A stretch of 11,771 nt of DNA from a virus (IMGVR_UViG_2526164631_000020); one strand, 5' to 3'. Positions 5,934 through 11,771 are shown, numbered from the stretch's first letter. Notes: generated by a model from the letters alone, not told the origin. Numbers and translations are program-made.

Positions 5934-8900
5934 ATGGGCAAAGGAAGCAGTAAGGGGCATACCCCGCGCGAAGCGAAGGACAACCTGAAGTCCACGCAAC
6001 TGCTGAGTGTGATTGATGCCATCAGCGAAGGGCCGATTGACGGTCCGGTGGATGGATTAAAAAGCGTGCTGCTGAACAGTACGCCGGTGCTGGACAGTGA
6101 GGGGAATACCAATATCTCCGGTGTCACGGTGGTGTTCCGGGCTGGTGAGCAGGAGCAGACTCCGCCGGAGGGATTTGAATCCTCCGGCTCCGAGACGGTG
6201 CTGGGTACGGAAGTGAAATACGACACGCCGATCACCCGCACCATCACGTCGGCAAACATCGATCGTCTGCGTTTTACCTTCGGTGTGCAGGCACTGGTGG
6301 AAACCACCTCAAAGGGGGACAGGAATCCGTCGGAAGTCCGCCTGCTGGTTCAGATACAACGTAACGGTGGCTGGGTGACGGAAAAAGACATCACCATTAA
6401 AGGCAAAACCACCTCACAGTATCTGGCATCGGTGGTGGTGGGTAACCTGCCGCCGCGCCCGTTCAATATCCGGATGCGCAGGATGACGCCGGACAGCACC
6501 ACAGACCAGCTGCAGAACAAAACGCTCTGGTCGTCATACACCGAAATCATCGATGTGAAACAGTGCTACCCGAACACGGCACTGGTCGGCGTACAGGTGG
6601 ATTCGGAGCAGTTCGGCAGCCAGCAGGTGAGCCGTAATTATCATCTTCGCGGGCGCATTCTGCAGGTGCCGTCGAACTATAACCCGCAGACGCGACAATA
6701 CAGCGGTATCTGGGACGGAACGTTAAAACCGGCATACAGCAACAACATGGCCTGGTGTCTGTGGGATATGCTTACCCATCCGCGCTACGGCATGGGGAAA
6801 CGTCTTGGTGCGGCGGATGTGGATAAATGGGCGCTGTATGTCATCGGCCAGTACTGCGACCAGGCAGTGCCGGACGGCTTTGGCGGCACGGAGCCGCGCA
6901 TCACCTGTAATGCGTACCTGACCACACAGCGCAAGGCGTGGGATGTGCTCAGTGATTTCTGCTCGGCGATGCGCTGTATGCCGGTATGGAACGGGCAGAC
7001 GCTGACGTTCGTGCAGGACCGACCGTCGGATAAGGTGTGGACCTATAACCGCAGTAATGTGGTGATGCCGGATGATGGCGCGCCGTTCCGCTACAGCTTT
7101 AGCGCCCTGAAAGACCGCCATAATGCCGTTGAGGTGAACTGGATTGACCCGAACAACGGCTGGGAGACGGCGACAGAGCTTGTGGAGGATACGCAGGCCA
7201 TTGCCCGTTACGGTCGTAACGTCACGAAGATGGATGCCTTTGGCTGTACCAGCCGGGGGCAGGCACACCGCGCCGGGCTGTGGCTGATTAAAACAGAACT
7301 GCTGGAAACGCAGACCGTGGACTTCTGCGTGGGCGCAGAAGGGCTTCGCCATGTGCCGGGCGATGTCATTGAAATCTGTGATGATGACTATGCCGGTATC
7401 AGCACCGGTGGTCGTGTGCTGGCGGTGAACAGCCAGACCCGGACGCTGACGCTCGACCGTGAAATCACGCTGCCATCCTCCGGTACCACGCTGATAAGCC
7501 TGGTTGACGGAAGTGGCAATCCGGTCAGCGTGGAGGTTCAGTCCGTCACCGACGGCGTGAAGGTAAAAGTGAGCCGTGTTCCTGACGGTGTTGCTGAATA
7601 CAGCGTATGGGGGCTGAAGCTGCCGACGTTGCGCCAGCGCCTGTTCCGCTGCGTGAGTGTCCGTGAGAACGACGACGGCACGTACGCTGTCACAGCCGTG
7701 CAGCATGTCCCGGAAAAAGAGGCCATCGTGGATAACGGGGCGCACTTTGACGGCGACCAGAGCGGCACGGTGAATGGTGTCACGCCGCCAGCGGTGCAGC
7801 ACCTGACTGCCGAAGTCACCGCAGACAGCGGGGAGTATCAGGTGCTGGCGCGATGGGACACACCGAAGGTGGTGAAGGGCGTGAGCTTCCTGCTCCGTCT
7901 GACCGTAACAGCGGACGACGGCAGTGAGCGGCTGGTCAGCACGGCCCGGACGACGGAAACCACATACCGCTTCACGCAACTGGCGCTGGGGCGTTACACG
8001 CTGACAGTCCGGGCGGTAAATGCGTGGGGGCAGCAGGGCGATCCGGCATCGGTATCGTTCCGGATTGCGGCACCGGCAGCGCCTGTCACTATTGAACTGA
8101 TACCAGGGTATTTTCAGATAACAGCGGTCCCGAAACTGGCTGTATATGACCCGACGGTGCAGTTTGAGTTCTGGTTCTCGGAAAAGCGGATTATCGATAT
8201 CAGGCAGGTTGAAACCAGCGCGCGTTATCTTGGTACGGCGCTGTACTGGATAGCCGCCAGTAGCAATATTAAGCCGGGTTATGATTATTACTTTTATATC
8301 CGCAGCGTGAACACCGTAGGTAAATCGGCATTTGTGGAGGCCGTCGGTCGGGCGAGCGATGATGCGGAAGGTTATCTGAATTTTTATAAAGGGTTGATCA
8401 ATAAAACGCATCTCGGCAAGGAACTGCTGGAAAACTTTGAGCTGACGGAGGATAACGCCAGCAAACTGGAGGAGTTTTCGAAAGAGTGGAAGGACGCTAA
8501 CGATAAATGGAATGCCATGTGGGGCGTCAAAATTGAGCAGACCAAAGACGGCAAACATTATGTCGCGGGTATTGGCCTCAGCATGGAGGACGCGGAGGAA
8601 GGCAAGCTGAGCCAGTTTCTGGTTGCCGCTAACCGTATCGCGTTTATTGACCCGGCAAACGGGAATGAAACGCCGATGTTTGTGGCGCAGGGCAACCAGA
8701 TATTCATGAATGACGTGTTCCTGAAACGCCTGACGGCCCCCACTATTACCAGCGGTGGCAATCCACCGGCATTTTCCCTGACACCGGACGGAAAGCTGAC
8801 TGCTAAAAATGCGGATATCAGTGGCAGTGTGAATGCGAACGCCGGGACGCTCAACAATGTCACGGTAAATGAAAACTGTACGATTAAGGGCATGCTGGAG

Positions 8901-9347
8901 GCGACCCAAGTCAGAGGGGATTTCGTTAAAGCTGTATCCAAATCATTTCCGAAACAGGCTGGTACGTGGGGTAACACGGAAACACCAAACGGGACGGTTA
9001 CAGTCACCATCAGCGATGATCATAACTTTGACCGTCAAATCATTATTCCGCCCATTATCTTTAACGGAATAGCGTATAGCTATCCGGGAAGTGGTAATAA
9101 CCCGGGAGGTACAAGTTACACGGGTTATGGTTTTGAAGTTCGCAAAAACGGTGTATTAATCGCATCCAGAGAAACTAAAGGGGCCATTCCCGGTAGCTAC
9201 AGTGCGGTTATTGATATGCCGAGTGGCAGGGGAAGCGTCACTCTGGAGTTTAAGGTTTTCCATAAAGGCAATCAGTGGGCAGGTAATATCACCGACTGTA
9301 CGGTGATTGTGACCAAAAAAGCCGCTTCCGGCATCAGTATTCGTTGA
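5934..9347 (+). CDS. J: Central tail fibre / host specificity protein gpJ
   Basis: 1137-aa ORF (lambda J is 1132 aa as recalled) with SD GGAG at 5922-5925. The N-terminal ~1000 aa look lambda J-like ([35 protein letters not shown]…). The C-terminal ~150 aa are the expected receptor-binding region. Confidence 0.9.
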
Positions 9348-9365
9348 AATTGTTATAACCCATAT

Positions 9366-9393
9366 AAGGGCACCAGAAATGGTGCCTTTTTTA
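9366..9393 (+). terminator. Rho-independent terminator downstream of J
   Basis: GC-rich hairpin GGCACC (9369-9374), loop AGAAAT, GGTGCC (9381-9386), followed directly by TTTTTT (9387-9392). Lies 19 nt after the J stop. Confidence 0.65.
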
Positions 9394-9416
9394 TTGCAGA
9401 AAAGCGAGAGGTAATT

Positions 9417-10016
9417 ATGCGTAAAGTTTGTGCAGCCATTTTGTCCGCAGCCATCTGTCTGTCCGTATCCGGTGCGTCTGCATGGGCGTCTGAACATCAG
9501 TCCACACTGAGCGCGGGGTATCTTCATGCCCGGACGAACGCTCCCGGTAGCGATAATCTTAACGGGATTAACGTGAAATACCGTTATGAATTTACGGACA
9601 CGCTGGGGCTGGTGACGTCATTCAGCTATGCAGGAGACAAGAATCGCCAGCTTACCCGTTACAGCGATACCCGCTGGCATGAAGATTCCGTGCGTAACCG
9701 CTGGTTCAGCGTAATGGCGGGGCCGTCTGTGCGCGTGAATGAATGGTTCAGCGCGTATGCGATGGCGGGTGTGGCTTACAGCCGTGTGTCGACTTTCTCC
9801 GGGGATTATCTTCGCGTAACTGACAACAAGGGGAAAACGCACGATGTGCTGACCGGAAGTGATGACGGTCGCCACAGCGACACCTCTCTGGCGTGGGGAG
9901 CTGGCGTGCAGTTTAACCCGACCGAATCCGTGGCCATTGATATTGCTTATGAAGGTTCCGGCAGTGGTGACTGGCGCACTGACGGTTTCATCGTGGGTGT
10001 CGGTTATAAATTCTGA
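9417..10016 (+). CDS. lom: Lom-like outer membrane beta-barrel protein (Ail/Lom/PagC/OmpX family), lysogenic-conversion moron
   Basis: 199-aa ORF with SD GAGAGG at 9405-9410. N-terminal signal peptide ([24 protein letters not shown]). C-terminus …[24 protein letters not shown] is identical in character to the lambda Lom C-terminal beta-strand with terminal Phe; the N-terminal two-thirds are more divergent. Confidence 0.85.
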
Positions 10017-10042
10017 TTAGCCAGGTAACACAGTGTTATGAC

Positions 10043-10070
10043 AGCCCGCCGGTTCAGGCGGGCTTTTTTG
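10043..10070 (+). terminator. Rho-independent terminator downstream of lom
   Basis: Perfect 8-bp stem AGCCCGCC (10043-10050) / GGCGGGCT (10057-10064), loop GGTTCA, followed by a T6 run (10064-10069). Lies 27 nt after the lom stop. Confidence 0.75.
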
Positions 10071-10080
10071 TGGGGTGAAT

Positions 10081-11394
10081 ATGGCAGTAAAGATTTCAGG
10101 TGTACTGAAAGACGGCACAGGAAAACCGGTACAAAACTGCACCATTCAGCTAAAGGCCAGACGCAACAGCACCACGGTGGTGGTGAACACGGTGGCCTCA
10201 GAAAATCCGGATGAAGCCGGGCGTTACAGCATGGACGTTGAGTACGGACAGTACAGCGTCAGTCTGTTGGTGGAGGGATTTCCGCCGTCACACGCCGGGA
10301 TTATCACCGTGTATGAGGACTCAAAGCCGGGCACACTGAATGATTTCCTCGGTGCAATGACGGAGGATGATGTCCGGCCGGAGGCACTGCGCCGTTTTGA
10401 ACTGATGGTGGAAGAGGTGGCGCGTCACGCTGAGGAGGCGAAGAAGAATGCCGGAGAGGCGGAGACGTCAGCGAGGAATGCCGGCATATCAGCCAGTCAG
10501 GCAGAAGAGAGCGCTGCAAATGCTGACACTTCAGCAGGGGAGGCATCGGAGTCAGCCCGGCAGGCGGCAGAAAGTGCAGCCTCAGCAAAGCAGTCAGAGG
10601 ATGCGTCCTCGTCCTCGGCTTCTGCGGCCGCTCAAAAAGCCAGTGAGTCATCACAAAGTGCAGCAGAAGCTGAATTGTCAAGAAAGACGGCAGAAAGTGC
10701 AGCCGGTAATGCAGCCAGGGATGCAATGACCGCAACAGAAAAAGCCCGGGAGTCAGCAGAAAGCGCACAGTCAGCGGAACAAAGCAGGATAGCGGCGGAA
10801 GACGCCGTAAACCGAATCCCCACCGTGGTGGGACCTCCCGGGCCAAAGGGAGAACCGGGGCCCGCGGGTCCTCAGGGGCCGAAGGGAGATAAAGGAGAGC
10901 GTGGCGACACCGGTCCTGTCGGGGCAACCGGTGAGCGGGGACCGGCAGGTGATGCTGGTCCGGCAGGCCCGCAGGGGCCGAAAGGCGACAGGGGAGAGCG
11001 GGGAGAGACCGGTCTGACGGGAAATGCAGGTCCACAGGGTCCAAAGGGAGATACCGGTGCGGCAGGCCCGGCTGGCCCACAGGGACCGAAAGGAGAAACA
11101 GGTGCGGCTGGCCCGGTGGGGGCAACCGGACCTCAGGGACCGAAGGGCGACCCGGGGGAGACACAAATCCGTTTTCGTCTGGGGCCGGGAAACATTATTG
11201 AGACAAACAGCCATGGCTGGTTCCCGGATACAGATGGCGCACTCATCACCGGACTGACCTTTCTTGACCCCAAAGATGCCACACAGGTTCAGGGTTTTTT
11301 TCAGCATTTGCAGGTCAGGTTTGGTGACGGGCCGTGGCAGGATGTTAAGGGGCTGGATGAAGTGGGCAGTGATACAGGCAGAACAGGAGAATGA
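10081..11394 (+). CDS. stf: Side tail fibre protein with lambda Stf-like N-terminal anchor, Ala/Ser/Glu-rich low-complexity segment, collagen-like Gly-X-Y region and a ~76-aa C-terminal tip domain
   Basis: ATG at 10081 (the ORF track starts at GTG 10075). N-terminus [38 protein letters not shown]… matches the lambda Stf N-terminus as recalled. Contains 37 consecutive G-X-Y triplets. Stop TGA at 11392-11394. Confidence 0.85.
10831..11163 (+). repeat. Collagen-like Gly-X-Y triplet repeat region inside stf (37 uninterrupted triplets, with GPQGPKG recurring five times)
   Basis: Translation [111 protein letters not shown]. The nucleotide sequence is GC-rich with imperfect internal repeats. Confidence 0.9.
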
Positions 11395-11395
11395 C

Positions 11396-11665
11396 ATGAA
11401 CGTACTAAAAAAACTTATGCAGCGTCTGTGCGGTTGCGGAAAGCATGATGACCGTGAACACGGGGAGTTACTTACAGCACAACTGCGTCTGGGGCCGGCA
11501 GACATTCTGGAGTCAGATGAGAATGGCATTATCCCGGAGCAGGCCAGGGTAATCACGCAGGTGGTGATACTGGATGCGGATAAAAAGCAGATACAGTGTG
11601 TGGTAAGACCGCTGCAAATCCTGCGTGCTGACGGGACGTGGGAAAATATTGGCGGGATGAAATAG
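11396..11665 (+). CDS. Hypothetical 89-aa protein, paralogue of the stf C-terminal domain
   Basis: ATG at 11396 with SD AGGAGA at 11385-11390, one base after the stf stop; TAG at 11663-11665. The segment LRLGPADILESDENGIIPEQARVITQVVILDADKKQIQCVVRPLQILRADGTWENIGG aligns with stf [60 protein letters not shown]. An identical 13-mer CGTCTGGGGCCGG occurs at 11176-11188 and 11486-11498. Confidence 0.6.
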   Translation: MNVLKKLMQRLCGCGKHDDREHGELLTAQLRLGPADILESDENGIIPEQARVITQVVILDADKKQIQCVVRPLQILRADGTWENIGGMK

Positions 11666-11771
11666 CCGACGAGTTCACAAAAACCGAACAGATCTGCCTG
11701 ATTGCCGAGGAAGAGCAACCGAAACTGATGGTAATTGACTCGATCCAGGTGATGCATATGGCGGATGTACC
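11632..11771 (+). pseudogene. radA: RadA/Sms-like recombinase gene fragment (internal RecA-like ATPase-domain segment, 5'-truncated; runs off the window end)
   Basis: Frame opens after TGA at 11629-11631 and reads RDVGKYWRDEIADEFTKTEQICLIAEEEQPKLMVIDSIQVMHMADV. The stretch EQICLIAEEEQPKLMVIDSIQVMHMADV (from about 11686) matches my recollection of an internal region of E. coli RadA/Sms (the hydrophobic-IDSIQ motif). The preceding residues do not resemble RadA and there is no N-terminal zinc-finger region. Confidence 0.45.

Follow-up and report, generated by a model that had tools for sequence, protein, structure and literature searches.

A probable EPclA-type collagen side tail fibre in a lambda-like tail module, and the small tip paralogue encoded directly downstream

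The stretch of DNA analysed in this work (the window; 11,771 nt of the viral sequence IMGVR_UViG_2526164631_000020) carries an open reading frame, stf, whose 437-aa product is very probably a standard side tail fibre of the EPclA type, encoded by a lambda-like prophage (434-host-range type) of pathogenic Escherichia coli. This fibre is already known; EPclA, the EHEC prophage collagen-like protein A, of which ECs2717 of prophage Sp14 is an example, had its biochemistry described in 2012 (Ghosh et al., 2012, PLoS One 7:e37872, PMC3368898). The window represents a lambda-like tail module with the genes G, T, H, M, L, K, I, J, lom, and stf. Directly after stf lies an 89-aa ORF which, given its AGGAG motif, the 1-nt gap and the conserved ATG, is translationally coupled to stf and is a conserved, separately expressed paralogue of the fibre tip. 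The features of this region are listed in Table 1.

Table 1. Positions of the fibre gene, its segments and the neighbouring features, counted from the first nucleotide of the window
Feature	Coordinates	Strand	Basis
stf, 437-aa side tail fibre, EPclA type (PfN-PCoil-Col-PfC)	10081..11394	+	translation, Pfam, Ghosh 2012 lengths
collar (tail-attachment) domain, aa 1-94	10081..10362	+	87/94 residues identical to Ur-lambda Stf, PDB 9E7M
putative 'PCoil' Ala/Ser/Glu-rich low-complexity segment, aa about 134-250	10480..10830	+	composition; coiled coil per Ghosh 2012
collagen triple-helix shaft, aa 251-361, 37 Gly-X-Y triplets	10831..11163	+	Pfam, triplet count, Ghosh 2012
PfC knob (Phage_fiber_C, PF06820), aa 363-426	11167..11358	+	Pfam; trimerisation module per Ghosh 2012
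intrinsic-terminator-like hairpin and T-run between lom and stf	10043..10064	+	8-bp stem, 7 GC pairs, then TTTTTGTGGG
13-nt direct repeat CGTCTGGGGCCGG, copy 1, codons R-L-G-P, start of fibre PfC	11176..11188	+	
13-nt direct repeat CGTCTGGGGCCGG, copy 2, start of PfC of the 89-aa ORF, same codon phase	11486..11498	+	
AGGAG ribosome-binding site of the 89-aa ORF, within the last stf codons	11385..11389	+	sequence; synonymous-site near-invariance
89-aa ORF, paralogue of the fibre tip, with its own PfC (aa 28-89)	11396..11665	+	Pfam, phrog_576, alignment to tip

The original prediction, made from the sequence alone, described a 437-aa ORF with a lambda-Stf anchor, an Ala/Ser/Glu-rich part, 37 triplets and a 76-aa tip, and on this anatomy Pfam, a triplet-counting script and the alignment to lambda orf-401 all agree. 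The domain search proposed at that stage recovered both the collagen repeat (PF01391) and the terminal tail-fibre domains, that is phage_tail_N (PF08400) at aa 1-133 (E 6.5e-70, whole profile covered) and PF06820 within the 76 residues C-terminal to the collagen (E 3e-35, profile positions 1-64 of 64). The Gly-X-Y run counts exactly 37 triplets with no break, and the 125 residues joining anchor and collagen (aa 126-250) are rich in Ala (31%), Ser (20%) and Glu (14%). Lambda orf-401, which is the N-terminal half of Stf, can be aligned over the first 160 aa with 76% identity, and past about aa 160 no alignment to it was obtained; collagen and PfC are found there instead, which bears out, for replacement, the earlier suggestion that the distal part of the fibre had been lost or replaced. 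The collar match to the Ur-lambda Stf chain (93% identity, E 5e-53) and matches to generic collagens were all that PDB sequence searches returned, with no solved relative of PfC. The stf ORF is intact and under purifying selection along its whole length, with dN/dS of about 0.145-0.16 in the tip and 0.23 at the N-terminus (pairwise Nei-Gojobori estimates, used for all dN/dS values given here). The gene is annotated as a tail fibre in BP-4795, in Lambda h434 imm21 and in E. coli O111:H2 12A.

The terminator-like hairpin between lom and stf occupies the same position as in lambda, and late transcription must read through it; a promoter scan of positions 9300-11771 gave no sigma-70-like sites. 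Two antisense ORFs, of 286 aa (10304-11164, minus strand) and 328 aa (10771-11757, minus strand), overlap stf and the 89-aa ORF, and are taken not for genes but for by-products of a coding sequence that is GC-rich and repetitive in its collagen and Ala-rich parts. A comparable small antisense ORF (ORF74) is annotated in the BP-4795 record.

The assignment to EPclA extends to the lengths of the segments. The commonest form of EPclA in the prophages of the O157:H7 strains EDL933 and Sakai has 437 aa, with a PCoil of 116 aa and a Col of 111 aa, copies of this length being found in CP-933K/M/O/R/U/V/P and Sp3/4/9/10/14/15 (Table 2 of PMC3368898), and EPclA copies are >90% identical among themselves (PMC3368898). 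Every EPclA feature that can be tested in sequence is present in stf: PfN, PCoil, a single unbroken Col, and PfC. [quoted passage not shown] By its sequence, the stf product would likewise trimerise, fold into a collagen triple helix and take a dumbbell shape. That the fibre folds without a chaperone, one of the options offered by the original prediction, was thus already established by the stable trimer formed by EPclA on its own (PMC3368898). The same prediction had treated the fibre as an oddity, while allowing that its architecture would be ordinary if the 437-aa form proved to be the standard fibre of a phage group lacking tfa; this is what was found, 437 aa being the modal length among 80 IMG/VR loci (45 of the 62 fibres of measurable length, range 371-441) in a fibre class without tfa. 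Comparison with related lambdoid prophages, which it had also proposed, upheld the absence of tfa and showed the architecture to be ordinary, being present in plaque-forming or classical phages as well (Lambda h434 imm21, BP-4795, the cdtI phage).

Lambda Stf is about 774 aa long, and the 437 aa found here, together with the abrupt end of the window's phage sequence at a radA fragment, could be taken to mean that the fibre is a decayed remnant, i.e., a lambda-type Stf, no longer functional, whose distal half and tfa were lost in a defective prophage. Frameshifted copies, named EPclA*, are also on record (PMC3368898). Against this, the distal half is not truncated but replaced by folded modules that were verified experimentally, the ORF is intact with purifying selection throughout, and viable phages share the identical architecture, so that decay is a highly improbable explanation. 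Many EPclA copies do reside in defective prophages, and this, with the abnormal end of the window at radA, means that the copy in the window may never be assembled. No direct evidence of EPclA mounted on long-tailed virions was found, the published micrographs being too low in detail in this respect (Ghosh et al., 2012; PMC3368898).

Ghosh et al. (2012; PMC3368898) left open whether EPclA could be a bacterial collagen-like adhesin or virulence factor comparable to streptococcal Scl1/2 or Legionella Lcl. EPclA is enriched in EHEC and EPEC prophages with effector cargo, and the collagen region of stf gave weak matches to the models Lcl, SclA and SclB; these matches however fall far under the curated cut-offs and are confined to the Gly-X-Y region. 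EPclA has neither a signal peptide nor an anchor, its N-terminus is the lambda tail-collar domain, and the gene belongs to the late tail operon. We consequently give this possibility hardly any weight, and regard the product as a side tail fibre.

Assembly of lambda Stf needs Tfa. The original prediction had stated that no tfa-like gene follows stf; this stands in so far as no Tfa homologue was found, and fails in that stf is not the last gene, the 89-aa ORF with its PF06820 domain having been overlooked. A BLASTP comparison of lambda Tfa with the 89-aa ORF returned nothing, and for this ORF Pfam reported PF06820 alone and no tail-fibre-assembly family. No tfa was present downstream of stf in the related loci, where type III effector genes and IS elements are found. 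As the window ends 106 nt past the 89-aa ORF, it is the related loci and not the window alone which demonstrate the absence of tfa.

In the proposed working of the fibre, stf trimers would attach to the tail through the 94-aa collar, where tube and tip meet, as the 93% identity to the Ur-lambda domain suggests; in Ur-lambda a collar of 12 Stf copies, arranged as 4 trimers, surrounds the gpV/gpM junction (PMC12617516). As shown for a near-identical protein, the Ala/Ser/Glu-rich segment would be a coiled coil of three chains and the 37 Gly-X-Y triplets would make up a collagen triple helix. The C-terminal 64-aa PfC knob would trimerise alone and nucleate the collagen helix, as shown for EPclA. 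The knob is presumed to be the receptor-binding tip and would presumably touch a conserved cell-surface ligand. Self-trimerising modules would thus stand where lambda has its Tfa-dependent gp37-like distal region, and with this replacement no Tfa would be needed, at least in vitro. Neither Tfa nor the downstream 89-aa gene is discussed by Ghosh et al. (2012; PMC3368898).

The 89-aa ORF starts 1 nt past the stf stop codon and 6 nt past the AGGAG motif. Its PF06820 domain (E 1e-34) is preceded by a 27-aa N-terminal peptide with a predicted short helix and a conserved Cys12, and in an alignment with the fibre tip the protein reaches 34% identity (E 1e-10). It matches phrog_576, a PHROGs family annotated 'tail fiber protein', over positions 1-89 of 89 (E 9e-60) and shows no similarity to any NCBIfam model. 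With the fibre tip as query, 80 IMG/VR loci were collected, 77 of which have the small ORF; in two the contig ends early and in one the fibre was not recognised by the screen. The small ORF adjoins the fibre in 77 of the 78 testable loci, usually with a gap of 1 nt, and both its ATG and its leader MN(I/V)LKKLMQRLCGCGK are conserved. Its dN/dS is 0.15 over the whole ORF, 0.07 in the PfC part and 0.29 in the leader. Across 43 distinct sequences the last 10 stf codons (11365-11394), which comprise few sites, have a pS of 0.006 vs 0.086 in the rest of the tip; this synonymous invariance is consistent with a nucleotide-level constraint imposed by the ribosome-binding site of the 89-aa ORF.

A search with the 89-aa ORF in a database of 5.8 billion sequences gave 172 clusters, the top 120 of which were all at most 131 aa in length and came, where the source was readable, from E. 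coli, E. albertii and Citrobacter rodentium. A PfC profile search of 1.84 billion representatives returned 83 clusters, nearly all of them short fragments of E. coli type. Four long, multi-repeat matches (P0139, P0166, P0168 and P0174) are regarded as spurious, being compositionally repetitive proteins, and P0143 shares just the last 35 or so positions of the PfC profile. Judged by these searches, the family of PfC-only small proteins is narrow. An AlphaFold2 monomer model of the 89-aa protein, built from a 14-sequence alignment, had a mean pLDDT of 51 and a pTM of 0.34 and was too poor for a fold search; likewise no confident model of the PfC domain was obtained in a preprint on phage phi24B (10.64898/2026.04.10.717836).

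What is known of the protein itself comes from short-tailed Stx phages. In Sp5 the homologue ORF68 is non-essential for plaque formation and lysogenisation (Mondal 2016). In phi24B two unique peptides, ADGTWENIGGMK and VITQVVILDADKK, with 3 spectra each, are reported in the proteomics supplement, so that about 6 spectra for the small protein compare with 2,267 for the fibre in virions (10.64898/2026.04.10.717836). The small protein is therefore translated, and purified virions contain traces of it at most. The same proteomics table holds an entry for a hypothetical fusion of fibre and small ORF with the authors' note 'Spike or just gp59?', and the small protein is nowhere mentioned in the main text of the preprint (10.64898/2026.04.10.717836). 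The idea that a frameshift fuses stf to the small ORF was rejected here, there being no junction evidence and the phi24B peptides fitting a separate protein equally well. Apart from the Sp5 deletion no literature on the role of the 89-aa protein was found, and searches under 'atfT' or 'alternate tail fiber tip' gave only unrelated plant papers. Database names disagree, with 'alternate tail fiber tip' in KU977419, 'tail fiber assembly chaperone' in OM418627, and 'phage tail fiber C-terminal domain-containing protein' as the PGAP name.

The 89-aa ORF is thus always linked to the fibre, strongly constrained and translated, and is dispensable in the laboratory in Sp5. With low confidence, we propose that its product is a dispensable accessory which may act on or with the fibre tip via PfC-PfC contacts and which would not be a stoichiometric part of the virion. 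It is possible, if doubtful, that the protein is instead a functional replacement for Tfa, i.e., a fibre-assembly chaperone which assists the folding of the PfC tip or the collagen helix and then leaves. It is encoded in the position of tfa, directly after stf and coupled to it in translation, it is under strong purifying selection, and it is made yet nearly absent from purified virions, as a departing chaperone would be; the annotation in OM418627 points the same way, though no experimental basis for it was found. Against such a role, the ORF resembles neither Tfa nor any family of chaperones, EPclA and its PfC trimerise and refold alone in vitro, and in Sp5 ORF68 is dispensable for plaques and lysogenisation whereas the fibre gene is not.

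An alternative that we hold to be unlikely is that the ORF encodes an alternative tip, either as a silent recombination cassette which changes specificity or as a subunit which co-assembles with or caps the tip. The domain shared with the fibre tip at 34% identity would fit such a function, as would the exact 13-nt direct repeat at the start of both PfC domains, in the same frame; deletion between the two copies would yield an in-frame 424-aa fibre with the alternative tip. Natural sequences of this kind do occur: in P0065 (L004 4-291), found in 2 samples, 13 collagen triplets are joined in frame, at a 'GPA' microhomology, to the PfC of the small ORF, and in the reciprocal chimera P0121 the N-terminal half of the small ORF is joined to the C-terminal half of the fibre PfC. 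ORF68 was proposed to be an 'intragenomic reservoir' for tip variation (Mondal 2016), and the name given in KU977419 agrees with this. On the other side, none of the top 120 of the 172 clusters is a full-length fibre bearing the small-ORF type of PfC, the longest having 131 aa, and in none of 160 IMG/VR loci was collagen fused in frame to the small ORF. A silent cassette would have no need for a conserved ATG, an AGGAG motif and a 27-aa leader with a dN/dS of 0.29, the phi24B peptides show that the small protein is made as such, and no frameshift signal was found (Mondal 2016).

It is more doubtful still that the protein represents a new type of fibre accessory, in which a copy of the receptor-binding knob is made along with the fibre and trimerises on its own in free form; it might then modulate specificity by capping or mixing into the tip, or serve as a homologous 'template' chaperone, by a mechanism unrelated to Tfa or gp38. 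Cor and Llp are receptor-blocking proteins, and by analogy an exported lipoprotein or receptor blocker was also considered for the 89-aa protein; this was rejected, as there is no hydrophobic stretch (best 9-residue Kyte-Doolittle mean 0.63), 'RLCGC' does not qualify as a lipobox and Tyr or His often replaces Cys14. The dispensable accessory acting at the fibre tip remains the reading that we prefer.

Further joins were observed in P0154, L019 and L050, where the fusion partners are unrelated genes of phages, among them portal and terminase, joined just 5' of the 'GALITGLTF' motif of the fibre PfC, which suggests that this site is a recurrent breakpoint. At the end of the window (11685-11771), phage sequence continues for 21 nt past the stop codon of the 89-aa ORF and breaks off mid-way in a terminator hairpin (AAAAACCGG...) that is present in related prophages. 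The sequence then passes directly into an internal radA fragment on the same strand, corresponding to about nt 477-562 of that gene with 98.8% identity. Among 5,426 complete E. coli genomes searched with positions 11660-11771, none had a match over 80% or more of the query, and none of the matches found spanned the junction of phage and radA, which may be a genuine rearrangement or insertion or else a chimera of the assembly.

The fibre finding itself matters little, this being a textbook-level component of EHEC and EPEC lambdoid prophages; at least 80% of stf and the 89-aa ORF is carried by 693 of the 5,426 complete E. coli genomes. The ligand of the strongly conserved PfC knob and the role of the 89-aa paralogue are family-wide questions not particular to the window, and answers to them would bear on the spread of Stx and effector phages among E. 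coli strains. As to the ligand, the phi24B authors argue that the PfC receptor is not BamA, and the related lambda_2B8 fibres reportedly show no BamA binding (10.64898/2026.04.10.717836).

Among known systems EPclA itself shows no difference of substance from stf, the two being alike in architecture, in lengths (PfN, a 116-aa PCoil, a 111-aa Col and PfC in 437 aa), in family and in prophage context. The closest relative of the window as a whole is a prophage of the EPEC O111:H2 strain 12A with 99.5% DNA identity, followed by E2348/69 with 97.8%, and over positions 9400-11686 the Stx phage BP-4795 and the cdtI phage are 96% identical in DNA. Protein identities to Lambda h434 imm21 are 95.8% for J, 94.5% for Lom, 95.2% for Stf and 91.0% for the 89-aa ORF. 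The window J (5934-9347) has 1137 aa, the first 980 of which are about 96% identical to both h434 and lambda; its last 150 aa are 94.7% identical to Lambda h434 imm21 and 37% to lambda. A receptor-binding J C-terminus which is 434-like and unlike that of lambda indicates a central fibre with 434-type host range. Lambda h434 imm21 (OM418627), which carries the side tail fibre module of phage 434, BP-4795 (ORF75/ORF76) and the cdtI phage share with the window J of 1137 aa, lom, stf of 437 aa and the 89-aa ORF, and also lack tfa; the genes downstream in these phages are type III effectors, whereas in the window the phage sequence gives way shortly after the 89-aa ORF to radA and not to cargo.

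The resemblance to the lambda and Ur-lambda Stf is confined to the collar domain, the position after J and lom, and the Ala/Ser-rich start of the coiled coil. Of the features that define the lambda Stf/Tfa system the window has the collar, and lacks the gp37-like distal shaft and receptor-binding region as well as any Tfa homologue, its fibre being shorter by about 340 residues. EPclB, the fibre of short-tailed Stx phages (933W L0121, Sp5 ORF67, phi24B gp61), shares its PCoil, collagen and PfC modules with stf and is likewise followed directly by a PfC-only 89-aa ORF (ORF68 in Sp5). It differs from stf in its length of 645 aa, in its two collagen segments parted by a Pf2 repeat, in its N-terminal region, and in being mounted on a podovirus tail via the adaptor gp62. 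In phi24B the EPclB homologue was identified by cryo-EM as the six lateral fibres (10.64898/2026.04.10.717836), and in Sp5 the EPclB gene is needed for plaque formation and lysogenisation, with its antibody labelling the tail ends in immuno-EM (Mondal 2016).
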